In this document: in pieces, positions 1 through 44,275 of the stretch
Numbering within the stretch: the stretch's first letter is position 1
Layout: the number at the start of each line of letters is the position of its first letter
From: a phage
Length of the DNA: 64,000 bases
NCBI GenBank assembly: GCA_012549035.1
Contig: GCA_012549035.1_4805.1
Reading direction: 5' to 3' (one strand)
Position numbers and translations under genes: made by a program
Notes under the pieces: model-generated
What the model was told of the DNA's origin: nothing
Seen by the model: the letters and a program-made list of their open reading frames with translations, nothing else
Databases searched by the model: none

Positions 1-1490
1 TACGGGTCGCCGCCGATTGAGCCAGAGTATGCAAGTGATGAGCCAGGTTGCATGAATGACTCGCCAACTACACCGTTTCTTGTCGTCAGCGGTCCGTTTG
101 CACAGGAGATGTTATTGAGTGTTCCCGCCGTTACAGACAGGATTGCTGTTCCGTCAGAAGGAGGGTTTTGCGTTCCATAAAAATAAGGCTCAGGTCCATT
201 TGGATTCTGAACAGGGTCGCAGACGCAAATCGAGTATCCAAACAAAAGAGCATCAGACCCTTCAGGCAATTCACGAGTTTGAGTTGATCCAGCGGCAGTC
301 GCCTTCAACTCTATTGAAAAGCTGGTACTTACTCCAGAAGCAGCGGTTGCCGTCTGCTCTACAATCCAGATTCGATACCAATCGCCGCCAATTGCTTTTA
401 TGCCACCACGGTTTGATTCCCTTCTTACTCCATCGAATTTGCCTTTGATGAAATAGCTCAATGACGGGTCCAAGTTGAACTGGCCAGTGACGGGGTCAAA
501 CAGCTTTCCATTACTCGATGCATCACTATTCTCTGTAACAGAAACAGAAGCGACATTTTCAGAAAGCACCTTTATGTAGAAGCTATAGCAAACGTTGACG
601 CCAGCCTGCGAAGGAAGCGAAATTGATTTGGCACTTGGATTATTGGCCAAAGAATACACAGGCTCACCGCTTGAAGCCGTCTTGATGACCCTTACTGCGT
701 TGGCAAAATTCTCTATGGCCTCGCCTGGGTAATCACCACACAACTGCCCATAGTAATCAGGCCCACCATACTGTCTGGTGTCGCCGCCGACAAGCCCTGT
801 GCCGGAACCATTTCCCCATGAGTACCAATCTGGGTGCGCCATCCGTGACACGGTGCCTGACACTCCGCTGATGGTCAACCCGGCGTTGTTGCCATGGCTT
901 AAAAGTATCTGCTTATAATCATGCTGAATCTCAGTCGACCCTTGCCAGTCGTACAGAAGGAATGAGCCATTTGTTGATTCAGATGAAGACACCGCACCTT
1001 GAGTATTGTCGGTCACATATGCGTAGCGTGATGAAGAGTAATCCCAAGCCTCTCCACGGTTAAAAATCCACTTAAGCATGCGGTTGATACTTTCGATGCG
1101 GCCATCACTTGTAAGCGTCAGATAACGAAGCTTAAGAAGTATTCGCGCTTCTTCGATATTCTTTACAACCTTCCCGCCAGCACCAAAGAAGTTGCCGCCG
1201 ATGTTGTCCGCACCTTCAAAGTTGTCGCGCGTCGGTCCAAACGCCCAGTTGTGCTCATAATTGCTTAAGTCCACAAAGTCTCTTGGTATGCAAAGAATGT
1301 CGCACCAAATATAAATGCCCATTGCATCACAAGTGTCAATGTTAAAAATGTTATTGTACCAGTCAGTCCAAAACTGATCTTGGTATCTTTCATACCAGTC
1401 ACTTTTCTTTTGCACCAAAGATGTAATGTTTGGTGCATTGTTCTGCATCCACTTAAGGTTTTGCAACAGGTTTGTGTCAAACTTTTGCAT
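1..1490 (-). CDS. Tail fiber / baseplate wedge-like protein, partial (3' end beyond window start)
   Basis: ATG at 1490-1488 with GAGGAA-like SD upstream; hand-translated open frame (MQKFDTNLLQNLKWMQNNAPNITSL...) toward window edge; follows baseplate J-like gene. Not in ORF track because no stop in window. Confidence 0.5.
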   Translation of the reverse strand, partial: MQKFDTNLLQNLKWMQNNAPNITSLVQKKSDWYERYQDQFWTDWYNNIFNIDTCDAMGIYIWCDILCIPRDFVDLSNYEHNWAFGPTRDNFEGADNIGGNFFGAGGKVVKNIEEARILLKLRYLTLTSDGRIESINRMLKWIFNRGEAWDYSSSRYAYVTDNTQGAVSSSESTNGSFLLYDWQGSTEIQHDYKQILLSHGNNAGLTISGVSGTVSRMAHPDWYSWGNGSGTGLVGGDTRQYGGPDYYGQLCGDYPGEAIENFANAVRVIKTASSGEPVYSLANNPSAKSISLPSQAGVNVCYSFYIKVLSENVASVSVTENSDASSNGKLFDPVTGQFNLDPSLSYFIKGKFDGVRRESNRGGIKAIGGDWYRIWIVEQTATAASGVSTSFSIELKATAAGSTQTRELPEGSDALLFGYSICVCDPVQNPNGPEPYFYGTQNPPSDGTAILSVTAGTLNNISCANGPLTTRNGVVGESFMQPGSSLAYSGSIGGDP

Positions 1491-16437: not shown

Positions 16438-17856
16438 TTATTCCCCTTTCAACCAAGCTTCAAATGCTTCGTCAGTTGCTGCAGAATCCGCAGCGGCCTT
16501 TTGTTTTGCGACTACACGCTGTTTTTGACCGTGTTCAACGCCGCGCAGATAATTATCCACAACGTCAAACTCAGCACCATCAACGCACTTCAAGCCTAAC
16601 TTTTTAGCGCCATATTTCGCTACGGACTTGGAGTCCATAGTTGCATGATCAAAGGCACCAACAACTTTAGACAGGCGCTGGTAGAGGCTATTCTTACGAG
16701 CAGAATCAGCGTAGAAAGCAGCAACTGCTGAATCAGATGCCATTGAGTGTTCCCCTTTTGCTGGACCTGGCGACGCTTTCGCCGCTTTTGTCGGTTTGTC
16801 ATCTTTTTCGACCGAAGCCCCCTTTACGTTGCTGTTTTGCAGGCCGCTAACCACATCTTCAGCTTTGTCGCAAGGTGATACATCTTCAGCCTTGACTTCA
16901 ACTTCTTCGTCTTTGACTTCGGCTTCAACTTCTTCTTCATCACCTACCGCGCCACCTTTCAGTTTTGCAATAAGTGCTTCGATTTGGCTGATCAATTGCG
17001 GAAGTTCGCCGCCAGCGTGAGATTCAGTTTCAACTTCAAACTTCTCTTCACCTTCTGGGGTTTCTTCTGCTTCTGCCTTGACTTCTGGATCAACCATTAC
17101 TTCTTCACGATTTTCGGTTGAGTCCTTCTCTTCTGCTTTCACTTCAACTTCATCCTGATGAGCAGCTTCAGCACTCTCTTCGTTCAGAAATTGTTCGAGC
17201 GCAGGGATCAGTGATTTCAGCTGTTCAACAGCATTATCACGCGCTTTACCTTTTAACGGTTTTGGCATGTCTAAATCCTCGTTGGATGGTGTTACAGTCG
17301 TCAAACAAAGATGGTCAAAGCAACGACCATCCAGCACCCGTGCACCTGGTACTCGACCAACGTCCACGAGAGCAATGTGGTTGCCGCGAAGAGTTGTCTG
17401 CACCACTTCATACGGCTGCCCGTCAAACTCTCCAGACTGTATGATGAATTCACAGTCATAGCCCAAAGACAAGTCAACCTTTCCAGAATCAATGGCCTTC
17501 TTCAGACGACGGCTAAACACTTTAAGGTCGCCGCGCATCCATGGCTTGTCATAATAAACATTGCCAGTCAGAACGCCATCAACTCCATACTCTTCGGGTG
17601 CTGTGTTATCCTCATCACCTTCAAATCCAGAAAGCATTTCGTGATTGTCGATGAAAGGGATATTTTTGAATGAATCTATCGCTTCGGGGTCTTTCACCGC
17701 TGACTCAGGGCGATAGACTTTTACGATGCGATTCGGATCACCATCAAGACCAACTTGACCAGCAGAATAATCAAAAATGCCAAATGACGAAATTGGACAA
17801 CCCATAATCGTCAAGAATCCATTTTTGTCAATTTCGCGTGCCGTTTGCATTCGCAT
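16438..17856 (-). CDS. Prohead protease / scaffolding-like protein with acidic coiled-coil region
   Basis: 472-aa ORF; Glu/Lys/Ala-rich central region typical of scaffolds; GAGGGTGG SD; alternative ATG at 17850. Confidence 0.45.
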   Translation of the reverse strand: MRMQTAREIDKNGFLTIMGCPISSFGIFDYSAGQVGLDGDPNRIVKVYRPESAVKDPEAIDSFKNIPFIDNHEMLSGFEGDEDNTAPEEYGVDGVLTGNVYYDKPWMRGDLKVFSRRLKKAIDSGKVDLSLGYDCEFIIQSGEFDGQPYEVVQTTLRGNHIALVDVGRVPGARVLDGRCFDHLCLTTVTPSNEDLDMPKPLKGKARDNAVEQLKSLIPALEQFLNEESAEAAHQDEVEVKAEEKDSTENREEVMVDPEVKAEAEETPEGEEKFEVETESHAGGELPQLISQIEALIAKLKGGAVGDEEEVEAEVKDEEVEVKAEDVSPCDKAEDVVSGLQNSNVKGASVEKDDKPTKAAKASPGPAKGEHSMASDSAVAAFYADSARKNSLYQRLSKVVGAFDHATMDSKSVAKYGAKKLGLKCVDGAEFDVVDNYLRGVEHGQKQRVVAKQKAAADSAATDEAFEAWLKGE

Positions 17857-17968
17857 CCACCCTCAAATAAGTATTGTGTATTATATCTAATGAAAAAAAC
17901 TTAGGCAAACAATAATTATGGTTTGAATATGTATAACAACCGATATAGCCGCGCCTTTATTAGTGTGA

Positions 17969-18193
17969 TACGGATGATACGGATAAAATGAGGCGTATTT
18001 TTATCCGTATCGGTGTATAAGCCGCGCTATCACTGGTGTGCTACGGATGATACGGATGATACGGATACTTTTCATATATAAGAGTTTATAAAAAAAAATA
18101 AAATTAAATTATATATATAATTTTAAATTAATTTATTTGAATTCCTATATAGTACGGCGGCAACGCGTATCATCCGTATCATCCGTAAGATTC
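17969..18193. repeat. Iteron cluster R1 (GATACGGAT-type 9-bp units) flanking extreme AT-rich tract
   Basis: GATACGGATGATACGGATA (x2), inverted TATCCGTATC, CTACGGATGATACGGATGATACGGATAC (x3), AT-rich 18075-18150, then 29-bp GCGTATCATCCGTATCATCCGTAAGATTC (18165-18193) identical to 34419-34447. Confidence 0.6.
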
Positions 18194-18273
18194 TTTTGAA
18201 AACAATAACTTACTTGATACGTATGATACGTCATTATACGTATAAAACTCGCGGCAATCCTTTGCCGATGAAT

Positions 18274-18421: not shown

Positions 18422-19342
18422 TTAGTTCAGCTTGATTGCGGTGATCTGTCCGTAAACGGTAGATGTCAATGCCTCTGTGCATTGATAGTTTAGATACACG
18501 TTGCCAGGCGCGGCAAGAGTGATTATCTTTGTTGGAATATTGCCGCCGAAACGACCTGCAGCCCGAATGCCAGCTGACATCGTAAATGCATCATCCGTAA
18601 TATCTGAATCGCTTGTTGACAATTTGGCTGTAATTCCGGTATTCGCTTGAATTCCTGCTGTCGCGACAGTCAACTGACTTGCCGTCACAAGCCACTTTCC
18701 TGCAGGAAGGTTTAAGGTCGCCAGATTAACCAAAGTGGTTGGAGGATTGCTAACACTGTTCGTGGCACTCTGGACGGTGCTTTCCGCTGCGTTAAGCACA
18801 CCGGAACCATCAATTGATAGAGTTGTACCGACCTTTACGCCGCCTAAAGTAGATGCTGACGCAATCGGCAATGAGTATTGAGTAACGCTAATTGTACCGT
18901 CACCTGCGACGCTTATTCCGCTTCCTATTTTGACGCCGCCGAGAACAGAAGCCGTTGCCGCTGGTAACGTGTATTGGTTGCCGCTTGATTTGACCACTTT
19001 AACGGCGACAGCATTCTTTGACCCTCCAGACTCCATTCCTATAATCACTGCTTCTCCAAAAGCGATGGTGATTGTAGATGCAGTTAAACCAGTCTGCACG
19101 TCTGTTATGTTCATTTTGGGAACTGAAAGTGTCAGATTCGGCTTGCTGGTAGAATCGCCATCATTACCGATCATAAAGAATTGACCAACTGAATTGTATC
19201 CAGACGCCAATGGCGGACTCAATGGAACAATCAGGTTTTTATCGGATGTAAATTCTGAAACAATCGCCAAACCGTTAGCATATACAGCAGGCAATACTGG
19301 CGTTTGTCCAGATAGAGGAAACGTGCTGATTGGTATCGTCAT
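18422..19342 (-). CDS. Virion protein with Ig-like/fiber repeats (head fiber or decoration, putative)
   Basis: Repeats LPAATASVLGGVKIGSGISV / LPIASASTLGGVKVGTTLSI; ATG at 19342 with GAGGT SD avoids overlap with MuF-like gene. Confidence 0.5.
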   Translation of the reverse strand: MTIPISTFPLSGQTPVLPAVYANGLAIVSEFTSDKNLIVPLSPPLASGYNSVGQFFMIGNDGDSTSKPNLTLSVPKMNITDVQTGLTASTITIAFGEAVIIGMESGGSKNAVAVKVVKSSGNQYTLPAATASVLGGVKIGSGISVAGDGTISVTQYSLPIASASTLGGVKVGTTLSIDGSGVLNAAESTVQSATNSVSNPPTTLVNLATLNLPAGKWLVTASQLTVATAGIQANTGITAKLSTSDSDITDDAFTMSAGIRAAGRFGGNIPTKIITLAAPGNVYLNYQCTEALTSTVYGQITAIKLN

Positions 19343-19349
19343 AATGACC

Positions 19350-20201
19350 TCAAATGATTGGTATTTTTCTGCACTTGCAGTGTATTGCCCATCCAGGAGG
19401 ACCGATGTCACCCTTTTTGAACTTCAATTCGCCGCCAACTTCCCATAGGCGCTTGTCATCAAGTTTGAATCTCATTCCGTCGACGTGTTCATGAGAGATT
19501 CGCGGCTCCTTTCCTGCTCCTGAGTGCGCCCACTCAAATTCTTCGACTCCATTCTGGCGCATCCTTTCATCGCTTAGAACGCAATACAATTTGCTTGTCT
19601 GGTCTTTAGCGATCAAGTCGACTCTCTTTGCAGAGAAGTGTTTTACGTTTCGCAATGCCGCCTGAATGCCTGACGTGCCTTGCTGGGCTGGGTCGGGAGA
19701 AGTCAGCGAAAGCATGACTGCTTCGTACACTCTGTTGTGAATATCCTCGCCGACCTTAGTCACTAGAGTCGTGTTAAACTTCTCGCTTGTTCTAAGAGTG
19801 TTCTCAACGAATTTGTTATATGTGGCCTTTGGCGCTTCTATGCCTGCGGACTTAAGGCTTGCGAATGTAGCAGAAGTGGCACCCTTTTCGACCGATTTGA
19901 TAAAATCAGCGGCAATCTTCGACCCAACACGTGCAAACGCCTTTGCCCATTTCAGTTGCAGCCGTTTCATAAGGGTCTGGAATGTCGAATCAGCAGAGTC
20001 TTGCGCAAAAAACTTCTGCACCTGCTTCTTGTCAAGCCATTCTGAAATGCCTGCCTGATAGTCATCAATCATCGCATAGCAAAGACCTTTCATCTCACGA
20101 CGATAGGCCATCGCGATTGCGTTGGATGGGATTATCGGACTGCCGCGCCCGACTCTATCGGGTAAGCGGCGTTCACGTTTTTTCGAAGCTTTAAAAGCCA
20201 T
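19350..20201 (-). CDS. Head morphogenesis protein (Mu F / SPP1 gp7-like)
   Basis: C-terminal HVDG...PPGWAIHCKCRKIPII resembles conserved MuF-family motif; directly downstream of portal; ATG at 20201. Confidence 0.6.
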   Translation of the reverse strand: MAFKASKKRERRLPDRVGRGSPIIPSNAIAMAYRREMKGLCYAMIDDYQAGISEWLDKKQVQKFFAQDSADSTFQTLMKRLQLKWAKAFARVGSKIAADFIKSVEKGATSATFASLKSAGIEAPKATYNKFVENTLRTSEKFNTTLVTKVGEDIHNRVYEAVMLSLTSPDPAQQGTSGIQAALRNVKHFSAKRVDLIAKDQTSKLYCVLSDERMRQNGVEEFEWAHSGAGKEPRISHEHVDGMRFKLDDKRLWEVGGELKFKKGDIGPPGWAIHCKCRKIPII

Positions 20202-23396: not shown

Positions 23397-24857
23397 TTAA
23401 AGGTTAGAGAAGAAGCCGGATGCTGCAACAATTGGTTTCATCAATGCCATGATTGCGGCGTCCGCTTTGTTAGGCGATTTAACTCCACGCTTTGCCATAT
23501 CCTTTTTCGATTCAACTTTGAACTTACCAAGAACAGACGTGTCTTTGCGCGGCGCTGACATCTCAAAAAGAAACGTCTCAATTTCTTCCGCAGACCAAGC
23601 AGGAATCCCAAGTTCTGGAATGCCGTCTGTGTCGATGGAAATCAACTCATCGGTCGGATATACGGCTTGCCCTGTCGCATACTCATATGTCTTTCTGAAT
23701 CGTTCGGCAATCTCAGTCCATTTTTGCGCTTTTATGTTTGCGAAATGGTCTTTATTGAGTATTTCAACGTGTGGTAACTCAAGGAAAACGTCATCAGGAT
23801 CATCAACAGCACCTTGCGCGTTGAACGCATTAAATTCGATTCTTGGGAATGTTGGATTTTCATGTATTGCATACTCATTGAGCTCATCAAATTTTGAACC
23901 AGCAAATGCACCGACACCGATGGCGTCATAGGTAATTGACGCGCCGAATGTCAATGCGTCTTTCCAAACTCCGCTTGCGGACTTAAGCAATTCATCTTCC
24001 AGACCTTCCCATGTCTTGATGCCACGTAATACGTTGCCTGTGACGAATGCAGTGGCGTTAAGGTCGTCGCCATCGTCCGCTACGTCAAAGCCTATACGGT
24101 TAGACCCTGACAAACTCCATCCCAGCGTAGGGTGCTTGTGGAGGTTAAGCGCAGCCTTAACGAATGCGCGGTTGATTACAGATTTGTCGCCGCCAGTCTT
24201 CGGCACGCCGCCATAAACGTGCTCTGCCTTTTTCGGGTCACGCTCGTACATGCCTGCAATAACGTCCAGCATTGTTTGCGACAAAAATGGATTGTCTTGC
24301 CAGTTTATCTTTTTAACAATGGCATTCTTCGGCGGTCGCATAACAAAGTTTTGGTAGACGAAATCGGCCTCTTCATCAGGGTTAAAGATGATCCATATTT
24401 CGGACCCTTCTTTACGGATTGTCGGCTCAATAATGTCCCACTGTTCTTCAGTAAGCGCGTGCGCTTCTTCCAGCCAAAGGACGTCAACACCTTCTGTTGA
24501 TTTAATTTCATCAACGTTACGTGCGATACCGTAAAATAGAAATTCAGATTTAGTTCTTTTATGTTCAATAGAGTTCTTTAATAAATTGAACTCATCTTTG
24601 AAATCAGAAATCTCTATTTTGTCTTTTAATAGAGTATATACAGATTCAGAAATCTTGTTCTGGAATTGTCGAACGCAAAGGAATTTTAATTTGAAGTTTG
24701 CCGCCAAATAAATAGCAAAACCAGCGGCATCGTGCGATTTGGAAGATGCACGACCGCCGTATATTACTTTGTATCGCGCTTTTGTCTTCCAGACTTCTTT
24801 TAAAGCAGGATTCAACTGGTACATGACTTTCCAATTATGTGTTAATATTTTATTCAT
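23397..24857 (-). CDS. terL: Terminase large subunit
   Basis: 486-aa ORF; Walker A-like YGGRASSKS near N-terminus; acidic nuclease-like C-terminal half; adjacent to portal. Confidence 0.8.
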   Translation of the reverse strand: MNKILTHNWKVMYQLNPALKEVWKTKARYKVIYGGRASSKSHDAAGFAIYLAANFKLKFLCVRQFQNKISESVYTLLKDKIEISDFKDEFNLLKNSIEHKRTKSEFLFYGIARNVDEIKSTEGVDVLWLEEAHALTEEQWDIIEPTIRKEGSEIWIIFNPDEEADFVYQNFVMRPPKNAIVKKINWQDNPFLSQTMLDVIAGMYERDPKKAEHVYGGVPKTGGDKSVINRAFVKAALNLHKHPTLGWSLSGSNRIGFDVADDGDDLNATAFVTGNVLRGIKTWEGLEDELLKSASGVWKDALTFGASITYDAIGVGAFAGSKFDELNEYAIHENPTFPRIEFNAFNAQGAVDDPDDVFLELPHVEILNKDHFANIKAQKWTEIAERFRKTYEYATGQAVYPTDELISIDTDGIPELGIPAWSAEEIETFLFEMSAPRKDTSVLGKFKVESKKDMAKRGVKSPNKADAAIMALMKPIVAASGFFSNL

Positions 24858-29951: not shown

Positions 29952-30146
29952 ATGAATAAAAATGAATCAGTAGCGTTCTTGCAATGGCTGGAAGGCGTGG
30001 TGGAGTATTACGCACCAAAAGACCGCTTCATCTTTCAAGGTAAAAGCTTCAAGCGCAAAGGACAAGCCCAGAAAGCAGCGCGTAAGTACTGGAAGGAAGT
30101 TTATTCAGATTTCTTTCAGCACATCGGCTCAGTTGGTATCGATTGA
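29952..30146 (+). CDS. Hypothetical protein
   Basis: 64-aa ORF. Confidence 0.45.
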   Translation: MNKNESVAFLQWLEGVVEYYAPKDRFIFQGKSFKRKGQAQKAARKYWKEVYSDFFQHIGSVGID

Positions 30147-30241
30147 TGAATCCAATCGTTACAATTAACAAACCGATTTGAATGCCGCGCTATGCGGCTT
30201 TATTATAATTCAAGTTAATCACCCTCATGAAAGGTAATGAT

Positions 30242-30622
30242 ATGTCAAATAAGAATGATTCTATTCACAATACATATACTAAAGGCAGCGGCACTGCTTT
30301 TGGTTCAAGTATCAAACTTGACGCTCCATCTTGCGATTCTGATGGATTGGAAGTCGGCAACCGCGACTTAACATGGGTTTTACGTCGCCAATCCGATTTA
30401 GAAGAGAAGCTGGAAAATATTGAGCGTTCTCTCGAAAGTTTGCGCGACCAGCTTTTTGGCTGTTCTGGAGATGAGTCAAAACCTGGACCATATGCAGCCA
30501 ATCGTGGTTTGATTGATAATATGCTTGCTATTACCGCTCGATCAATTGGTAAGACTGTGTCCATTGAATCATTGATCAGCCAGATTGCGGATGGCTTTGG
30601 TGATGCCCATAAGAGTGAATAG
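30242..30622 (+). CDS. Hypothetical protein
   Basis: Likely start at MSNKND within track ORF 30227..30622. Confidence 0.5.
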   Translation: MSNKNDSIHNTYTKGSGTAFGSSIKLDAPSCDSDGLEVGNRDLTWVLRRQSDLEEKLENIERSLESLRDQLFGCSGDESKPGPYAANRGLIDNMLAITARSIGKTVSIESLISQIADGFGDAHKSE

Positions 30623-30651
30623 TGGGTGTTGCTGATTTAACCGTGAATCGT

Positions 30652-30677
30652 GGGTCGCTGTTGCGGCCCTTTCTTTT
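30652..30677 (+). terminator. Intrinsic terminator closing plus-strand cassette
   Basis: Stem gggtcgc/gcggccc (one G-U), loop tgtt, tail tttctttt. Confidence 0.55.
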
Positions 30678-30893
30678 GCCTGCCGCGCAGGAGTGTACTG
30701 CAAAATTCCTGTGGGTACAAAATAGTACGGTACTGTCTAGGGCTTTTTCTTTGAAAAGTTAGTGGACCAAATGTGTCGTATTTTGATTAGTGTACCGCAA
30801 ATTTCATCAAGTACCAAAACGCACCAAAAGACCCATGCCATAAAAACCACACGAACGCAATAATCAATCGCCGTTACAGTTTCCAGCGTTACA

Positions 30894-30956
30894 ATTCGAA
30901 AGCGAATGATTCGACGCATAATAATATGAAGCACAATGATTCGAAAGCGAATGATT
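30894..30956. repeat. Direct repeat TTCGAAAGCGAATGATT x2 (46-bp spacing) in untranslated gap
   Basis: Identical 17-mers at 30894-30910 and 30940-30956; each contains cgaat-N-attcg inverted motif. Confidence 0.6.
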
Positions 30957-31274
30957 GTGTGTAGGATAATATCGGTGGGGATTATTCGAGATGCATGTAA
31001 TTTCGCATGCGTACTATTTTCGGGCGAAGGGTCGGCATATTCCTCGTTTTAGTTCGGAACGAAGGGAAAGTTTTGCGCCTTTATAAAACAACGACTTACG
31101 CGACCCGCCCTAACGGTCCGATATAGGTGTCTATATAAAACAAGGACTTACTCGATGTTCTCCATTTAACGTAATACCTGTTATGCGAACTAAGGCGCAT
31201 CTCGATGAAGATTATGCGACGAAGAAGGGAAGGATAAAGGAGTTTTTTGCGGAGAAGCGCATCGAGATAGGGAC

Positions 31275-31300
31275 GAAGAAAAGCCGCGACTAAGCGCGGC
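31275..31300 (-). terminator. Intrinsic terminator closing minus-strand island operon
   Basis: On minus strand GCCGCG-CTTAGT-CGCGGC followed by TTTTCTTC. Confidence 0.5.
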
Positions 31301-31326
31301 CTATTAGTAACGGTGGGTGATTATAA

Positions 31327-31536
31327 TTAAAGGAATAATCCGGCGCGTTTAATTTGCCCAAGGACGTTATCGCGACGGCGACGCATAACCGCGTATTTAA
31401 CTTCTTCTTCGTATCCCCAGCCGCCGATGGATAACATCGCGTTCATATTATCGCATAATTCCTTAAGCTCGCGAAACATATCGATTACGGCGGTGCGATG
31501 GGCGCGCGCGTTAAGAGAGTTATTCATATTAGTCAT
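31327..31536 (-). CDS. Hypothetical protein (CpG-rich island)
   Basis: 69-aa ORF with AAGGAG SD; CpG-rich codon usage unlike flanking genes. Confidence 0.5.
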   Translation of the reverse strand: MTNMNNSLNARAHRTAVIDMFRELKELCDNMNAMLSIGGWGYEEEVKYAVMRRRRDNVLGQIKRAGLFL

Positions 31537-31546
31537 TTTCTTCTCC

Positions 31547-31837
31547 TTAAAGGCTTACGATTTTAAAGTAAGTTACTTCGCCGCCGAGTTGCGGTACAGC
31601 GATATATTCGCCGCCGATTTCGGTGATCGTATAAACGAATCCGTTAATCGTTACGCGGTAGGATACGATGTCCTCGTCGCGATACTTGTAAAGGTCGAGG
31701 AAGTTGATCGGCTCATAAATAGACTCGATAATCGCGTCGACGTTAGAGAGATAAACGCTCTCTAAGGTTTCGCCAAATACGTTAGAGTTTTCGGAAGTTT
31801 CGACGCGAGCGGCGCGGATAGCGGATAAAGTAATCAT
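31547..31837 (-). CDS. Hypothetical protein (island; paralog of 31944..32246)
   Basis: 96 aa; AGGAGA SD; preceded by conserved promoter/5'UTR cassette A. Confidence 0.55.
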   Translation of the reverse strand: MITLSAIRAARVETSENSNVFGETLESVYLSNVDAIIESIYEPINFLDLYKYRDEDIVSYRVTINGFVYTITEIGGEYIAVPQLGGEVTYFKIVSL

Positions 31838-31940
31838 AATATTCTCCTAGTTAGTCGGGAGGGTAGCGACCTATTCGCTACCTCATCCCCTCTCGATATA
31901 AAACATTATAGCCTTAGTGTACGAATAAGTAAAGCACTTT
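31838..31940 (-). promoter_or_regulatory. Promoter + 5'UTR cassette A (sigma70-like -35 TTTACT / -10 TATAAT, UTR hairpin)
   Basis: Minus-strand TTTACTTATTCGTACACTAAGGCTATAATGTTTTATATCGAG; UTR hairpin ggtagcg...cgctacc; homologous to cassettes B and C. Confidence 0.5.
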
Positions 31941-31943
31941 TCG

Positions 31944-32246
31944 TTATTTTGCGATAAAATATTTGTAAGCCTTATCGCCTTCTACGTCGATATACTCGAC
32001 GATAATTAATGCTTCGCCGCGCGGCGTAACCGTCTCGATAAGGGTAACGGCTTCGTCGTCGGTCTTCGCGAAGCGGATGGCGCTACGTTCGGCGTACTTG
32101 ATATCGTCGAAGGAAAGACCGACGAAGGCGACCGCGCGGACCTTAATGGCGCTAGATTCTAGTTCGGCGTTAACGGCGGCGATAAGAGAGCGAACGGTTA
32201 AACGGTCTTCGTCGTAAGTAAGGATGGAAGAGATTAAAGTGGTCAT
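31944..32246 (-). CDS. Hypothetical protein (island; paralog of 31547..31837)
   Basis: Start at MTTLISS (ATG 32246) after GGGAG SD; about 100 aa; track N-terminal extension lies in promoter cassette. Confidence 0.5.
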   Translation of the reverse strand: MTTLISSILTYDEDRLTVRSLIAAVNAELESSAIKVRAVAFVGLSFDDIKYAERSAIRFAKTDDEAVTLIETVTPRGEALIIVEYIDVEGDKAYKYFIAK

Positions 32247-32336
32247 AATAAAACTCCCGATGCTAGTGGAAGGAAGGGCCATCGCCCGTCTCGATATAAA
32301 CAAGTATACGTGAGTGTACGAAGAAGTAAAGAAAAA
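32247..32336 (-). promoter_or_regulatory. Promoter + 5'UTR cassette B
   Basis: Minus-strand TTTACTTCTTCGTACACTCACGTATACTTGTTTATATCGAG; same architecture as cassette A. Confidence 0.5.
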
Positions 32337-32371
32337 GATAAATAATTTATCTCATTTTTATCGAAAAAGTG

Positions 32372-32469
32372 CTTTACTTTTTTCTACACTATATTATAAT
32401 GTACTCATATCGGGACGGGATGAGTTGACGAATAGGTCGTTAACACTGCTCCCAAACTAGGAGTTTATT
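32372..32469 (+). promoter_or_regulatory. Promoter + 5'UTR cassette C (inverted copy of cassette A)
   Basis: Plus-strand TTTACTTTTTCTACACTATATTATAATGTACTCATATCGGG then GGGATGAGTTGACGAATAGGTCG...ACTAGGAG; divergent from cassette B. Confidence 0.5.
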
Positions 32470-33108
32470 ATGGCCAGTTTGAATCGTTTCTCCACCAGCG
32501 GCGACGTAATCGCAACCAAGACAGCCGACCTCGTTGCATTCTATAACGAAAATTCAGGCTCAAAGCCGATTAAAAAATTCGCGGACCGCCGGACCGCCGA
32601 GACTCGCGTAATCGCGTTAATCGAGTCCTTAAACGCGCTCGATGAGCCGTCCAACGAATCGCCCATCCCAGACGTGAAGGCGCGTGAGGAAGTGTCCAGC
32701 GATGTAAAAACGCATAAGGCGCGTGCGGTCGTTAAAAAGGCTGAGCCGACCCAGGAAGAACTCGACGCGATGAGTGATGAAGAGTATGAAGCCTTCGTTA
32801 AGAGCAGCCTTAATAGCGCTCCGGTTGGCGCTCCGGTTGGCGCGGATAAAATTGCCAGCCCTTCCCATCGCCGTTCGAATAGCGAAGGTATTGCAAAAAG
32901 TTGGGATAACAAGGAAGTGGCGCAAAAGCGTCTCACCCGTAACGGCGTTATGGTCGAGGGTGTAGGCGAGTTCAAATCGGTCCGCGTAGCGTTCGCCGCG
33001 CTGGGATTACCGGATAGCAAGCACATTCGCTTCCGCATGAAGCTTAAAGAAGCTGGACGCTTGAACTTCGAGTTCGGCAACAAGTCCTACACCTTCCAGA
33101 TTATCTAA
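32470..33108 (+). CDS. Hypothetical protein (island)
   Basis: 212-aa ORF, CpG-rich codons; driven by cassette C. Confidence 0.55.
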   Translation: MASLNRFSTSGDVIATKTADLVAFYNENSGSKPIKKFADRRTAETRVIALIESLNALDEPSNESPIPDVKAREEVSSDVKTHKARAVVKKAEPTQEELDAMSDEEYEAFVKSSLNSAPVGAPVGADKIASPSHRRSNSEGIAKSWDNKEVAQKRLTRNGVMVEGVGEFKSVRVAFAALGLPDSKHIRFRMKLKEAGRLNFEFGNKSYTFQII

Positions 33109-33115
33109 TCGAATG

Positions 33116-33137
33116 GCGGCCCTTCGGGGTCGCTTTT
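33116..33137 (+). terminator. Intrinsic terminator (UUCG tetraloop hairpin + T-run)
   Basis: gcggccc-ttcg-gggtcgc followed by tttt. Confidence 0.55.
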
Positions 33138-33158
33138 CATAGTGCAAATTGGTGGCTT

Positions 33159-33422
33159 ATGAATACGCTTATTCTCATCGCTACGTTGTCCATCGGAAGT
33201 GGTCGCACCTTATCCCTTTATGATCATAGTGCAAATTGCGCTTACCCAACGCGCGTTGCGGCGATAGTTAATAGTGCAAATCGAATGCTATTCGAGACTT
33301 GTTGGCGGGTCGATAACGAGAAAGGGCGCATCGTCTTAGGTTATAGTGCAAATCTGCTGGTGGAGTCGTTCGACTGGACGGCGGAAGGTCGTAAATTGTT
33401 ACGTAAAGTGACTAAAAGATGA
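33159..33422 (+). CDS. Questionable small ORF encoding SAN tripeptide repeats
   Basis: 87-aa ORF; GGTGG SD; three in-frame motif copies give H/N/Y-S-A-N; nucleotide-level conservation suggests the DNA motif is the selected feature. Confidence 0.25.
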   Translation: MNTLILIATLSIGSGRTLSLYDHSANCAYPTRVAAIVNSANRMLFETCWRVDNEKGRIVLGYSANLLVESFDWTAEGRKLLRKVTKR

Positions 33423-33536
33423 CTTATAATAATACACTTTCTAACGCGTTTATGGCTGCAGCCTTCCCCGTCGTATTACCGATGGCCCTAGAAGTGGAGA
33501 AAATGTGTTCTAGGGCCGTTTTATAGTGCAAATTGG

Positions 33537-34010
33537 CTAGTGGCGGGAGAATTGCTCACCCTCTTTGGCCGCCTCTCCAAAATCCTTGTAGAAATCGTCC
33601 ATGGAACGGCCCATTTTACTATTGCCATTCTCATCAATCATCGTGATGCCGTAGATGATATTCAGTTCACGAATGGCATTAAGCTTGGCTGATGCCGCGA
33701 CTTCTGGATCACGCACAAGCTTCACTAAATTGTGAATGGAACTCTTTACACTCCACAATTCCTTCAATGGCATCTCTTCCATACGCTTTTTGTAGCGCAT
33801 CTTGTAGTACGGATTGCGTTGCGTGCAGAGGATTCGCTGGCCAGTGTAGTTATCGGTCGCAACCTCCATGCCAAATACTAGTGCAAAAGCTGCGCGCATG
33901 TCATGGCCCTGAATAACAAGGTCAATGAACTCATCGAATAATGCCTGATTATGCTCTGCAAATCGCGGGTCTTCAAAGTCTTCAGGCATTGCTACATAAT
34001 CTTGACTCAT
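33537..34010 (-). CDS. terS: Terminase small subunit-like protein (putative)
   Basis: About 157 aa from ATG 34010 (MSQDYVAMPEDFEDPRFAEHNQALFDEFIDLV...); N-terminal HTH-like segment and ..AKLNAIRELN.. recall Terminase_2-type small subunits by memory; track N-terminal extension rejected. Confidence 0.45.
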   Translation of the reverse strand: MSQDYVAMPEDFEDPRFAEHNQALFDEFIDLVIQGHDMRAAFALVFGMEVATDNYTGQRILCTQRNPYYKMRYKKRMEEMPLKELWSVKSSIHNLVKLVRDPEVAASAKLNAIRELNIIYGITMIDENGNSKMGRSMDDFYKDFGEAAKEGEQFSRH

Positions 34011-34062
34011 AGTGCAAATCCCATAGTGCAAATTAATAGTGTGAATTATACAATGATTGAAC

Positions 34063-34091
34063 ATTATATTCAAGTGCAGATTGATGTTCAA
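34063..34091 (-). promoter_or_regulatory. Sigma70-like promoter for terS-like gene
   Basis: Minus-strand TTGAAC, 17-nt spacer, TATAAT; 5'UTR carries the tandem ATTTGCACTAT motifs. Confidence 0.45.
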
Positions 34092-34237
34092 ATTGGCTGT
34101 AAACGTACATAAATCATAGTGCTGAATGAATATCGGACCGTGGTGCGTGGTGTACTGTTTGATACGTATAAAAGAAATCCATCCCTTTCGCCGCTTGTTA
34201 TGCAAATCAATGACTTAGCCGCTGCTGGCTGGTTGAA

Positions 34238-34513
34238 GCGTATCATGACGTATCATCCGTATTGCCGCAAGTCTTTGTTTTTACTTATATCTTACGGATA
34301 ATACGTTAAATATATAAATTAACATAAGTATGAGGATGTAGAAAAAAATTAATTTAAATTAATTCAAAATGGAGTTAATTAATTTTTGAAATAATTCTGG
34401 TTACAATAAGGAAAAATGGCGTATCATCCGTATCATCCGTAAGATTCAGTGTACAAATCCAGGCGCGGCGCACCCTAGCGCCATGATACGGATAAAAACC
34501 TATCCGTAAGAGT
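34238..34513. repeat. Iteron cluster R2 (GATACGGAT / ATCCGTATC 9-bp units) flanking AT-rich tract
   Basis: GTATCATGACGTATCATCCGTAT, TTACGGATAATACG, 29-bp GCGTATCATCCGTATCATCCGTAAGATTC (34419-34447), inverted pair TACGGATA-N6-TATCCGTA; AT-rich block 34305-34410. Confidence 0.6.
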
Positions 34514-34741
34514 GTACGCTTCAAGCAAAGAATCCAGGCGCGGCGCGGCTTTCGCCACCACACACCACGGTTCACTCTCCAAAATCCGCACACTAAATTC
34601 CAAAATCCAATGCTCATACTCCAAAAATAAATCAAAATTTCCATTTTATTTATTATTTTCATCCACAATATCCTAAATTCTATCCGTATCAACCATGCCT
34701 CAACCCACCACTATTCACGCCACTCACTTCAAAATTTCCAT

Positions 34742-34772
34742 CGAAAACAACAAAAGGTCGCATAAAGCGACC
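34742..34772 (-). terminator. Intrinsic terminator ending minus-strand early operon
   Basis: Minus-strand GGTCGC-TTTAT-GCGACC followed by TTTTGTTGTTTTCG. Confidence 0.55.
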
Positions 34773-34824
34773 CATTGCACACATTCCATTATTCAAAACA
34801 CGTAAACGAGTGTTCTTTTATCCA

Positions 34825-35364
34825 CTATAATTTAGGCATCAATCCCTTTTCCGTTCTCCTTTTTATCTCGTCTTCTATCATTTTATTGGTTACTCTATAC
34901 CCAATCCTCTCCAATTCCAGCAATACTTCCTTTTGGTATTTTCTTATTTTTACGATGTCGACCGTATCCCTCCAATAAGATAATACCTTCTTAATGACTG
35001 ACTTTTCCATTTTATATCTGGCTGTCGTCATATATTTCATTTTGAAAATAGAGTTGATGGCATCCGTCTTTAACCATTCCTTTCTTAATTCAGGATGATC
35101 ATCCCAAAGAGCAATGGCGAACTCCTGCGGACTTTTGCACCTGCTTTGAAGCTCCTTTATGTAGTCGACCGTTTTCACTTTTCTATCTAAACGCTCGCGG
35201 CAAACGGTGCACTCTTCCTTGAGCAACCAATCGGCCTTCTTGTCAATTTGCAAAGTTGAATTACCATCCCTTTTATACCTGCCGCAAATGCTTATGCCTT
35301 CATCTTTTAAGAAGTAATGCAACTCTTTAGAGTATTTCGCTTTACGCCAAAAGCCTCCCATCAC
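34825..35364 (-). CDS. Hypothetical protein
   Basis: 179-aa ORF, Cys-containing basic protein. Confidence 0.5.
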   Translation of the reverse strand: MMGGFWRKAKYSKELHYFLKDEGISICGRYKRDGNSTLQIDKKADWLLKEECTVCRERLDRKVKTVDYIKELQSRCKSPQEFAIALWDDHPELRKEWLKTDAINSIFKMKYMTTARYKMEKSVIKKVLSYWRDTVDIVKIRKYQKEVLLELERIGYRVTNKMIEDEIKRRTEKGLMPKL

Positions 35365-35783
35365 CCCTCCTTAACGACCCGATAAGCAACAATCTTTGCG
35401 CCAGTCGGGCTTGCCACTGCACCCCAGTTCAAATTATCCGAAGGGACGGCCTCTTTTGATTTATAACCGTTGAGTAATTCAAACATGACCATCTTCCCAG
35501 GCACCGGATTATCGCCACCAAACCACACGGTCCACGCTTCTTCCTTTTGTGCGACAGTCTTCTTGCTTTGTTCGATGATGTCACTAAAATTCTTCACTAC
35601 CAGCTCAGCGGCTTTGATGCACTCGTGGTATTGTTCAATCTCTTTTGTTAGAGAATCATTAAGCTTGAGTAGTGATTCATAGTCCTCATATGCAACAAAA
35701 CGTCCTTCGTGACTTTCTGGAACAGGAGTGATGTCGAAATCTTCTGTCGCCACATCGTATGTCAGATCATAACGTTGTATCAT
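35361..35783 (-). CDS. Hypothetical protein sharing C-terminal domain with 36934..37434
   Basis: C-terminal WTVWFGGDNPVPGK...AYRVVKEG parallels WIEWAGGENPVPGK...AYRVVEE. Confidence 0.5.
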   Translation of the reverse strand: MIQRYDLTYDVATEDFDITPVPESHEGRFVAYEDYESLLKLNDSLTKEIEQYHECIKAAELVVKNFSDIIEQSKKTVAQKEEAWTVWFGGDNPVPGKMVMFELLNGYKSKEAVPSDNLNWGAVASPTGAKIVAYRVVKEG

Positions 35784-41957: not shown

Positions 41958-42605
41958 TTATCCTGTGGCCTGCATATTGCGTACATACTTCTGCTCTAAT
42001 GAATAGATGAAGTCGGCGACAGTCAATCCCTTCGTGTGCCATTCATACATGGTGAAGCCTGTATTCAGGAAATAGCCGCGCACCTTGTCCATCGCTTCAG
42101 CTTCCTCCATTGAAGCCATCAGCGCGGCGACGTTGTCATAAGAAGGCACAAATCCCTTCTTGCGTAGCGCATTGCGCAAATCTTTAGTTCTGAAGCCAAT
42201 CTTGCAAGGGTCATCGCGGCCCGTGGATGATGCAACCTTTGGAAGAGCAAGGAACTCTTTGAGGAACATTGCAATGTTCAAGTCGCCTGCATCATCAAGC
42301 TTCTGGATTCGGTTGCGACCGCGACCCTTGAATTCACTCGCACGAGGGTGAGCGCCAAAACAGTGCGCCCCTTCCAGTTTAGGGTCAATGATCATCACAT
42401 CTTTCCCAATGCGCAGCTCTACGTAGTAAAGATAAGACTCATCGACAAGCTTTGTGCGCTTGCAAGTGATTGAGTCCTTATCATAACCAAAGCCGCGCAA
42501 CACGGTTGAGATCATTCGGTTCATTTCTTCGCCGTGAACGTCACTTTCTTTGTTCAGTTCACCAAGATGTTGAAAGAATTTAGCGATGTTGATTGCTTTA
42601 TTCAT
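41958..42605 (-). CDS. Hypothetical protein
   Basis: 215-aa ORF overlapping primase-helicase stop. Confidence 0.55.
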   Translation of the reverse strand: MNKAINIAKFFQHLGELNKESDVHGEEMNRMISTVLRGFGYDKDSITCKRTKLVDESYLYYVELRIGKDVMIIDPKLEGAHCFGAHPRASEFKGRGRNRIQKLDDAGDLNIAMFLKEFLALPKVASSTGRDDPCKIGFRTKDLRNALRKKGFVPSYDNVAALMASMEEAEAMDKVRGYFLNTGFTMYEWHTKGLTVADFIYSLEQKYVRNMQATG

Positions 42606-44275
42606 CAGAATTCATCCTTATCTCTTCCCAAAGAACGTTTACGCTCAATAACCTTCTTCAAGAATTCAATATCTTCAGGGTCAGACTCATCGCGGATAAG
42701 ATACGCTAAGATGGTCATCAAATCAGAAATGTATTCTCCTGCTTCATTCTTAATCAGCGGCGTAAAGTACCCGCGCTGGTTGCGATAGGTTGCAGGCTCA
42801 AAACCAAGCTTCGACATGTGCGGCGCAAGGGTACGAGAGAAAGGCGACTTGCCACACTTCGCTCTGAATCCCATAGCAATAGCGCCACTGGTGATGTGCC
42901 AGCGTCCGCTGTGATGTCGGTCATAAGGCGCGGTGATGACGACTTCAACAAGGTCGTTGTCGACCATCTCATCACGGATAACGCCGCGCGCACGTTCCAT
43001 TTCGTTCTTGCTGAACTCAGTAAGCATGCGAGATGTTTCACCAACAAACGCGTTATAGCCTGCTTCGCCGTGCTTCTCCATCCACGCAGCGCACTCAGCC
43101 ATAAGCTGCCAAACGTCTTCTTTCAAAGTGGAAAGGTCGGCTTGGAAGTCCTTAGACCAGTTCGGTTGCCCGTCCTTGTCAGCGAGTTGGCCAACAAAGA
43201 TAGGGTACACACGACGGTTGCCCGTGTCGTCACGCTGCATGCCTGCGTATTCGTTGCCGTCCATGATCGCAATCCACTGGCGTGGTTTAACCTGCGTATC
43301 TTCAAATTTGAAGTCCAGGTCATCTTCCGTCTTAGTCAGGAATGCTTTCATGTTTTCGATGTCGGCCTTTTTAAAGCCTGTCATCTCGCCAACGTTCGCG
43401 ATAATTGAGCGACCCGTGATAGCTCGCAAGAACGGGTTGAAGTTTTGCGCGGCTAAGTTCAACGGAATCGGTGTTGCGTGGCGGTCGTTCATAATAGCTT
43501 CGCAAAGCAGCTTGCTAAAATAACTCTTCCCTGCGTTCTGGCCGCCGATGAGCGCAATGGAGATTGGCGCTTGACAGCCAGGGTTGGTCAGGCGGTTGTA
43601 GAGCGATAGCCAAAAATACACACCGATTTGTCGGTTTAACTCTGTATCGAACGGTCGGAATAGCTCGATAAGGTATTTCTCGATGCGCGCAGTACCGTCC
43701 CATTCAGGCAGCTTCTTGTAGAAGAAGTCCATCAGGTCGTCGCGCTGATAACGCATGGCCCATTCCTTATAGGATTGAGCGACCTGACGTGAGTTTGGGT
43801 TGGACAACCCTGCTGCGTCGACAGCGGCAACTATCTCTGTGACTTCCAAGGTACGGTCAGTGAATGTTTCGCCGCGATGGTCGACTAAGCGCCCACGAAA
43901 AGTATCTTTGTGAGGGAATGGAACAACGCCACTTCCCTTATCAAACAACGCGTCGAACACCGCATAACGGTTCATGTCACTCGTCCGGTCTGCCTGTAGA
44001 ACGAAGTCATCTTTAGTCGGCTTGTAGTGAGGGAACTTGATTACCTGAAGTGAGGCGAGCAAGCGTGCTCTTTCAACCAAGTCTTCTTCACCGTAGCATT
44101 CCATGCGCTCTGAATCTTTTTCAACGGCTTTATGTTGAAGGCTGATTTTAGCTCTGGTGCCTTGCTGCTCTGCTGCCTGCATTTCTTCCGAAACACCTGC
44201 ATCTTGAATTTCGTCAAAGATTGCACCAAATTCATCACCTGTATCCTCTGGAAGATTGTCATTATTAATTGACAT
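42605..44275 (-). CDS. SF3 primase-helicase (D5 / P4 alpha C-terminal type, putative)
   Basis: 556 aa; Walker A GGQNAGKSYFSKLL; acidic N-terminus; size and motifs fit phage/plasmid primase-associated SF3 helicases. Confidence 0.6.
   Translation of the reverse strand: MSINNDNLPEDTGDEFGAIFDEIQDAGVSEEMQAAEQQGTRAKISLQHKAVEKDSERMECYGEEDLVERARLLASLQVIKFPHYKPTKDDFVLQADRTSDMNRYAVFDALFDKGSGVVPFPHKDTFRGRLVDHRGETFTDRTLEVTEIVAAVDAAGLSNPNSRQVAQSYKEWAMRYQRDDLMDFFYKKLPEWDGTARIEKYLIELFRPFDTELNRQIGVYFWLSLYNRLTNPGCQAPISIALIGGQNAGKSYFSKLLCEAIMNDRHATPIPLNLAAQNFNPFLRAITGRSIIANVGEMTGFKKADIENMKAFLTKTEDDLDFKFEDTQVKPRQWIAIMDGNEYAGMQRDDTGNRRVYPIFVGQLADKDGQPNWSKDFQADLSTLKEDVWQLMAECAAWMEKHGEAGYNAFVGETSRMLTEFSKNEMERARGVIRDEMVDNDLVEVVITAPYDRHHSGRWHITSGAIAMGFRAKCGKSPFSRTLAPHMSKLGFEPATYRNQRGYFTPLIKNEAGEYISDLMTILAYLIRDESDPEDIEFLKKVIERKRSLGRDKDEF

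Follow-up and report, generated by a model that had tools for sequence, protein, structure and literature searches.

The 64,000-nucleotide stretch of phage DNA analyzed here (the window) comes from a Wifcevirus, a myophage of Escherichia coli, and in the region of interest it is 90-98% identical to the genomes of WFC, WFH, ECML-117, Mansfield and Bas98-101. The phage genome reads along the minus strand of the window, and on this strand lies the small terminase gene terS (33537..34010), which encodes a protein of 157 amino acids (aa). Two plus strand genes converge on it, one for an 87-aa protein (33159..33422) and one for a 212-aa protein (32470..33108). In and around terS we find an array of an 11-bp motif, which reads ATAGTGCAAAT on the plus strand and ATTTGCACTAT on the sense strand of terS, and all copies of which have the same orientation.

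There are seven exact copies of ATAGTGCAAAT, all on the plus strand, with starts at 33139, 33226, 33271, 33343, 33523, 34009 and 34023, where 0.04 copies are expected from the base composition (P(≥7) approximately 5e-14). Beyond these seven there is no match with one mismatch or less anywhere in the 64 kb. When two mismatches are allowed, the window holds 22 matches, which is not above the number in shuffled sequences; two of the additional matches fall within the cluster, namely the degenerate copies at 34036 (ATAGTGTGAAT) and at 33878 (CTAGTGCAAAA, inside the terS coding sequence), with two mismatches each. At 34116 a further look-alike differs from the motif at three positions and is not kept in the relatives. 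Counted by the core of the motif, there are eight copies in the sense and none in the antisense orientation of terS, and relative to the terS ATG the array extends from -36 to +871. Approximately 4 kb of the genome lies outside the window, and no copy is present there, as checked in the relative Mansfield.

The original prediction for this locus, made from the letters alone, had claimed at least eight copies in the same orientation, three of them in tandem at an exact pitch of 11 bp, or one helical turn, and overlapping the start of terS, with further copies at irregular spacing 3' of the gene. The shared orientation and the confinement to the array stand, the latter from the genome-wide count that had been proposed as a check, but the number eight is reached only if degenerate copies are included. 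It is also clear that the pitch had been misjudged: the tandem triple has its starts at 34009, 34023 and 34036 and hence a pitch of 14 and 13 bp. The overlap with the ATG was correctly seen, since the copy at 34009 contains it, and so were the irregularly spaced copies 3' of terS, five of which are exact and lie past the stop codon (the copy at 33523, three within the convergent 87-aa gene, and the intergenic copy at 33139). The start-to-start spacings over the whole array are irregular (13, 14, 131, 355, 180, 72, 45 and 87 bp) and do not follow a helical phasing of approximately 10.5 bp or multiples of it.

The individual copies are listed in Table 1 together with the predicted promoter and the other features of the locus. 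At the start of terS the order is the -10 hexamer of the predicted promoter, the degenerate copy directly after it, and then two copies that fill the short leader, the last of them with the ATG, so that the triple occupies approximately +1 to +35 of the predicted terS promoter. On the other side of terS, the three copies within the 87-aa gene share a reading frame and each encodes x-S-A-N.

Table 1 Features of the terS locus and of the left genome end in the window.
Feature	Position	Strand	Remarks
Motif copy	34009..34019	minus	ATTTGCACTAT; final bases give the terS ATG; kept in 10 Wifcevirus genomes, of which 7 have an inserted A (1 nt)
Motif copy, exact	34023..34033	minus	In the predicted terS 5' leader; invariant in 10 genomes
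Degenerate motif copy	34036..34046	minus	ATTCACACTAT; lies at the predicted transcription start and abuts the terS -10; invariant in 10 genomes
Core-matching copy	33878..33888	minus	TTTTGCACTAG; inside terS, +122 from the ATG; encodes the conserved peptide AFALV
Motif copy	33523..33533	minus	4 bp beyond the terS stop; overlaps the T-tract of the plus strand terminator
Motif copy	33343..33353	minus	Inside the 87-aa gene; Chi site directly after it on the plus strand; one A/G polymorphism among relatives
Motif copy	33271..33281	minus	Inside the 87-aa gene; encodes the conserved N-S-A-N
Motif copy	33226..33236	minus	Inside the 87-aa gene
Motif copy	33139..33149	minus	Spacer between the 212-aa and 87-aa genes; invariant in 10 genomes
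Predicted sigma-70 promoter of terS	34045..34073	minus	TTGAAT-17-TATAAT; both hexamers kept in 10 genomes
Hairpin terminator of the convergent operon	33484..33524	plus	Between the 87-aa gene and terS; annotated in WFC; conserved
Position homologous to the left genome end (left boundary of the direct terminal repeat)	34370..34371		WFC position 1 maps here (BLAST); the Mansfield record start aligns with that of WFC
Region homologous to the direct terminal repeat	30746..34370	minus	One collapsed copy in the assembly; contains the whole array
terL, large terminase subunit	23397..24857	minus	PHROG 3717 / PHROG 2; approximately 9 kb from terS

The gene at 33537..34010 is a true small terminase gene of the E217 type, because a profile of seven homologues gave a single PDB match, 7uxe_A ("Small terminase"), with E=1.8e-45 over residues 4-151, because the AlphaFold2 (AF2) model of the protein had 7uxe_A as its top match in Foldseek, and because the Mansfield orthologue is annotated as TerS in GenBank, from HHpred. 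The model has a predicted local distance difference test score (pLDDT) of 72.7, and 7uxe_A was its only significant match (E=7.9e-6, prob 1.00), followed by weak matches to the TerS proteins of PaP3 and NV1. This agrees with the TerS fold of an N-terminal helical DNA-binding domain, helices for oligomerisation and a beta element. The "terS-like" gene of the original prediction can thus be called terS. Pfam gave nothing for its product, and PHROGs places it in a family of unknown function (PHROG 4783). According to a review (PMC9611059), 7UXE is the decameric TerS of the Pseudomonas Pbunavirus E217, in which terS is likewise found apart from terL.

In the record of WFC (72,472 bp) the terS orthologue is the first gene (361..834) and is repeated near the right end, and a direct terminal repeat of approximately 3.7 kb has been reported for this phage by Korf et al. 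(PMC6563267). For Mansfield a repeat of 3,673 bp was predicted with PhageTerm, and its record starts at the position homologous to the start of WFC; in Ro157lw terS lies at 360. The ends of the Wifcevirus relatives are fixed, with a direct terminal repeat that measures 3.67-3.78 kb. The termini of the window were taken from this mapping of close relatives by other laboratories, and they place the right repeat boundary near 30746, where the WFC and Mansfield records differ by approximately 77 bp. Counted from the left end, the array occupies genome positions 325-1232 and is thus close to the mature genome end, on the terS side. The suggestion of a pac site of the headful SPP1/P22 type has to be given up in the light of the fixed ends, the long repeat, and a left end 325 bp outside the array; what survives of it is the location of the copies in and adjacent to terS, while a cut within or between the repeats and permuted DNA do not.

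The left terminus at 34370 lies no more than 3 bp from the center of a 17-nt inverted repeat with the arms 34289-34305 (ATCTTACGGATAATACG) and 34429-34445 (CGTATCATCCGTAAGAT). The whole structure (34249-34445) is composed of TATCATCCGTA units at a pitch of 9 bp around approximately 120 bp of very AT-rich DNA, and its outer arm is kept in all Wifcevirus genomes, while the sequence beyond is hypervariable. Just outside the left boundary, at 34371-34824, 81% of the alignment columns vary among Wifcevirus genomes against approximately 13% just inside, and apart from small conserved islands this segment is hypervariable or mosaic. A second locus of the same architecture is found at 17960-18240, between the gene for the head protease (16438..17856) and an uncharacterised gene (18422..19411). 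These two AT-rich inverted-repeat loci could be cut-site determinants, replication origins or regulatory sites. At the other end of the terminal repeat we noted TTTGC[A/G]GTACACT elements at 30692-30712 and 30789-30806 on the minus strand, approximately 45-55 bp to either side of the right boundary, and just inside that boundary a 12-mer, CACTAACTTTTC, that recurs near the left terminus of the Serratia phage MTx.

The array is conserved more strictly than its surroundings. In an alignment of ten Wifcevirus genomes only 2 of 77 motif columns vary, compared with 120 of 954 columns in the 1 kb around them, which takes in the terS coding sequence (Fisher p=0.005). The pitch of the triple is 15 and 13 bp in most of these relatives, owing to an extra A, and 12 and 13 bp in the metagenomic phage L008, whose TerS is 70% identical. 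In L008 the layout is the same, with a TATAAT followed by the three copies and the ATG, and the same degenerate form is found upstream of terS. When the search was reduced to the core YYGCACTA, sense-oriented arrays around terS were found in eight lineages with TerS identities down to 44%. Besides the Wifcevirus lineage these are L008 (nine sense and no antisense copies), L156 (TerS identity 54%; 9/0), L157 (52%; 6/0), L009 (50%; 9/1, the antisense match being distant), L158 (48%; 8/0), L010 (45%; 6/0) and the Pantoea phage Kyle (44%; 12/0). In the seven further lineages the copies run from approximately -130 to +1150 relative to the terS start, and the probability of such an array from base composition is 1e-7 to 1e-14 (L008, L009, L010 and Kyle).

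The positions of the copies mostly differ between lineages, whereas the motif, its orientation and the number of copies are retained, which shows selection for the motif rather than inheritance of a block of sequence. A few copies do keep their position, owing to a second role in coding for conserved peptides (AFALV in TerS, N-S-A-(N/D) in the 87-aa protein). The AFALV copy, at 33878, has a counterpart at the same position in L008; its conservation may be due to coding. No array was found in the Serratia phage MTx, the Salmonella phage PCSE1, the Pbunavirus Ab27, tabernarius, FoX7, or the metagenomic loci L160 to L166. A survey of IMG/VR for the motif in tandem (TGCACTAT-N3-8-TGCACTAT) gave 120 matches, almost all of them unrelated, and arrays of at least eight copies, or a TerS, were present only in Wifcevirus contigs; a search of IMG/VR with the TerS alignment returned only Wifcevirus.

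Other repeats occupy the surroundings of terS in some of the lineages that lack the motif. The Pbunavirus Ab27 (L007) has two sense-only triples of AACAYTC at 305-430, which lie 307-426 bp from its reported fixed end and approximately 180-295 bp upstream of its terS of the E217 type. The pitch is 12 and 13 bp in the first triple and approximately 10-11 bp in the second, as judged by eye, and both are invariant in four Pbunaviruses (L007 and L028-L030) with variable flanks. They are possible counterparts of the Wifcevirus triple. Position 1 of Ab27 was reported as a single fixed read termination, with no direct repeat (Essoh et al., PMC4482731), and the two genera therefore share a fixed end that lies a few hundred bp upstream of terS. 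Sense-only arrays of a GCGCGGC type surround terS in L163 (12/0, from -326 to +1696) and L166 (9/0). These heptamer arrays, seen in L163, L166, L161 and L025 (tabernarius), may be what corresponds to the array in these lineages, or else the Chi sites of unknown hosts. A universal GCGGC element near terS was considered and rejected, the sequence being too common and mostly of mixed orientation, with a clear orientation only in L163, L166, L161 and L009. In MTx (L006), a member of a genus without the GCACTA array, three 21-bp direct repeats (AAAAAATAAGCATGCTTTGTA) lie at 965-1090, just downstream of terS.

TerS itself varies in step with the motif at one position: residue 64 is Q, K or R in 9/9 sequences from GCACTA-positive lineages and E in 11/11 sequences from negative ones.

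We tentatively favor, with a confidence somewhat below an even chance, the reading that TerS recognizes the array, close to the genome end, and that the same array doubles as the operator of terS. Rings of TerS would bind to the co-oriented ATTTGCACTAT sites, which begin 325 bp inside the left repeat boundary, bracket terS and reach to approximately 1.23 kb. The bound TerS would mark the concatemer junction and recruit TerL, which would then cut at the AT-rich site at 34370/34371, where packaging would begin or be processed. Through the same contact, occupation of the promoter-proximal triple would shut off the expression of terS and result in autoregulation. This reading is favored because of the location of the array, its restriction to a single spot in the genome and the presence of lineage-specific motifs in a conserved position, and further because of its absence from other enterobacterial genera and the correlation with residue 64. 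The absence from MTx and PCSE1, both phages of enterobacteria, argues for a reader encoded by the phage rather than by the host.

A number of observations weigh against a TerS recognition array. The mapped left end is outside the array, 325 bp from the nearest copy, and the inverted repeat centered on the terminus is a better candidate for recognition of the cut site than the array is. The irregular and unphased spacing is unlike that of well-studied TerS sites, and in relatives the array is found in the same place and in the same orientation as arrays of Chi, which suggests another function. In the only biochemistry on this family of TerS, as given in a review (PMC9611059), the TerS of E217 had no appreciable DNA binding in vitro. 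The correlation with residue 64 is confounded with phylogeny, and lineages with an identical motif core differ in the putative recognition helix of their TerS. Finally, Kyle has no copies upstream of terS.

The operator function could also belong to a different DNA-binding regulator of the phage, which would repress the terS promoter and possibly the convergent operon and have no direct role in packaging. We regard this as unlikely, though it is the strongest of the alternatives. It draws on the three copies at approximately +1 to +35 of the predicted promoter, including the ATG, in the window as well as in L008, and on the conserved gene of unknown function for the 212-aa protein that adjoins terS in convergent orientation. 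An operator would, however, be expected at promoters, and no other promoter of the genome carries the motif; most copies are far from predicted promoters and inside coding sequence, and there is no predicted promoter at the five downstream copies. The motif also has no dyad symmetry. As for the regulator itself, the 212-aa family is present in lineages without the motif as well, searches with Pfam, NCBIfam and PDB profiles gave no DNA-binding domain in the neighboring proteins, and the 87-aa neighbor looks secreted. The motif is not a promoter in its own right, having no acceptable -35 or -10, and the scan puts the terS promoter just upstream of the triple; in Kyle the bases 3' of the core do not resemble a -10 either.

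The two neighboring proteins were considered as binders of the motif and rejected. The 87-aa open reading frame is a real gene that is conserved in five lineages, and its product has a hydrophobic N-terminus resembling a signal peptide and conserved Cys and Trp residues; its sole Pfam match is a sub-threshold one to the MGMT DNA-binding domain (E=0.08, 13 bits against a cut-off of 27). The 212-aa protein (PHROG 4730), whose gene faces terS convergently in the majority of the genera that were examined, Pbunavirus, MTx and PCSE1 among them, gave nothing significant in Pfam, NCBIfam or the PDB profile search. Its AF2 model was unusable (pLDDT 43) because the homologues in the large database are all at least 89% identical. 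At 31864-32442, in the middle of the terminal repeat, we noted long inverted repeats (36 nt with 83% and 27 nt with 89% identity, approximately 420-510 bp apart), each arm of which has a promoter-like TTTACT-16/17-TATAAT site, the pair being convergent.

An alternative of rather low probability is a Chi-like directional signal. The enzyme reading it would enter at, or track from, the exposed left end, and the signal would tame an exonuclease or promote recombination of the terminal repeats into concatemers. The orientation on a single strand, the irregular spacing, the copy number that is kept while positions turn over, and the tolerance of coding sequence are hallmarks of Chi and of FtsK orienting polar sequences (KOPS). 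Moreover, true Chi arrays occupy the same 2 kb in the same orientation in Kyle (9 sites), L009 (6), L157 (7), L158 (8) and MTx (4); their orientation is the one in which Chi acts on RecBCD coming in from the left end, and there are none of the opposite orientation, which points to an exposure of the left end to RecBCD. In the window a single left-active Chi at 33356-33363 on the plus strand, directly 3' of a motif copy, is kept in 10/10 Wifcevirus genomes. A Chi of the opposite orientation at 32492 is not conserved and is probably due to chance. On the other hand, the motif has no known reader among enterobacterial enzymes and does not resemble Chi, and MTx and PCSE1 infect enterobacteria and yet do without it. 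L008 has the motif and no Chi at all, and therefore the two arrays are not coupled. A Chi-like signal would also leave the tight triple at the promoter and ATG unexplained.

A bolder version, which we likewise hold to be rather improbable, is that the array is a previously unrecognised directional DNA signal marking the left arm of the terminal repeat. It would act either as a distributed loading zone for terminase that chooses the side of the cut, or as a phage-specific Chi-like signal that alongside the Chi of the host makes the exposed end a substrate for recombination. If true, this would mean that a sequence determinant for packaging or for the processing of ends had been identified for the first time in myoviruses with long terminal repeats, and the loading zone would account for the formation of the 3.7 kb direct repeat.

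It appears very unlikely to us that the copies are the iterons of a replication origin, to which a phage initiator or the primase-helicase would bind, the AT-rich DNA at 34300-34415 serving as the unwinding element. The copies are direct repeats of one orientation approximately 250 bp from a very AT-rich segment, and the phage does encode a primase-helicase (42605..44275) and a DNA polymerase. But regular direct repeats abutting an unwinding element are not what is found here, where 11-bp repeats are spread over 0.9 kb at spacings from approximately 13 to 355 bp and are mostly intragenic. In addition, the AT-rich segment has an inverted TATCATCCGTA system of its own, and as this system recurs at 17960-18240 without any copy of ATAGTGCAAAT it is the better candidate for an origin. 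A DnaA box was rejected as well, ATTTGCACT fitting TTWTNCACA at only 7/9 positions as judged by eye.

Equally little speaks for an RNA element, in which an RNA-binding protein would control translation or stability through AUUUGCACUAU in the leader, start codon and read-through 3' region of the terS transcript: every copy is indeed on the sense strand of terS, one contains the start codon, and read-through would put all copies into one transcript, as no terminator-like site was detected on the minus strand 3' of terS, but in L008 the predicted terS promoter is preceded by at least two copies, at -114 and -74, and by a further degenerate one, most of the copies in Kyle lie more than 0.5 kb past the stop codon, no structure is evident from the sequence, and a search of 30000-35500 gave no Rfam match at E≤1.

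The identity of TerS and the terminal repeat are already in public records. A literature search found no mention of the motif, nor any discussion of repeats in the Wifcevirus literature consulted. Judged from sequence, the array is best filed as terminase recognition repeats adjoining terS, in a dispersed and strictly oriented form and in a myovirus with long terminal repeats, this being a candidate function. It is the best available candidate for the DNA signal of the packaging enzyme. The targets of small terminases are poorly defined in most phages, and the array offers a defined candidate ligand of 11 bp for an orthologue of a structurally solved TerS, at a known position relative to a mapped end, with natural variants of the motif in sister lineages. 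Since phages of the genera Wifcevirus and Pbunavirus are in use or under consideration for therapy and are being rebooted synthetically, it is also useful to know which cis elements near the ends are required.

Among the closest known systems is the cosB region of lambda, which has the same order and where the gpNu1 sites R3-R2-R1 are located between cosN and the Nu1 gene, within approximately 170 bp of the nick site and with a bend made by IHF. In both cases the left end is followed by short repeated sites and then by the start of the small terminase gene, which the last site abuts. Lambda, however, has cohesive ends, while here there is a direct repeat of 3.7 kb with the nearest copy 325 bp from the end, and the copies here are in one orientation throughout, with five more beyond the gene. 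T7, a phage with a 160-bp direct terminal repeat, has the heptamers of SRL and SRR flanking the repeat from the outside, with a suspected but unproven role in concatemer processing. The array likewise consists of irregular short repeats of the same sense close to the genome end of a phage with a direct terminal repeat, but its repeats are 11-mers that surround terS within a 3.7 kb repeat.

The pac site of P1 consists of seven hexamer repeats inside pacA. Recognition sites in or adjoining terS are also described for P22 and SPP1, the pacL and pacR sites of SPP1 being TerS sites that flank the cut and lie partly inside gene 1 (PMC9611059). As in P1 and SPP1, where they are the recognition signal for packaging, clusters of short repeats are found here in and around the small terminase gene. 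The difference is that those phages package by headful and cut between the repeat clusters, whereas the ends here are fixed, the cut is outside the array and the spacing is much wider. To Chi (GCTGGTGG) the array is similar in being strictly oriented, irregular and tolerant of coding sequence, and in occupying the same 2 kb at the left end in relatives; it differs in sequence, in having no known reader and in being confined to 1 kb of the genome.

A further comparison is with E217 and the Pbunaviruses, which likewise have an orthologous TerS, a terS gene far from terL that is the first gene after a fixed read end, and a triple of short direct repeats at a pitch of 12-14 bp some 310-330 bp from that end. 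Unlike the Wifcevirus genomes, those of Pbunavirus are reported as permuted, with terminal redundancy but no long direct repeat, and their repeat is AACAYTC instead of TTGCACTA and is found only upstream of terS.

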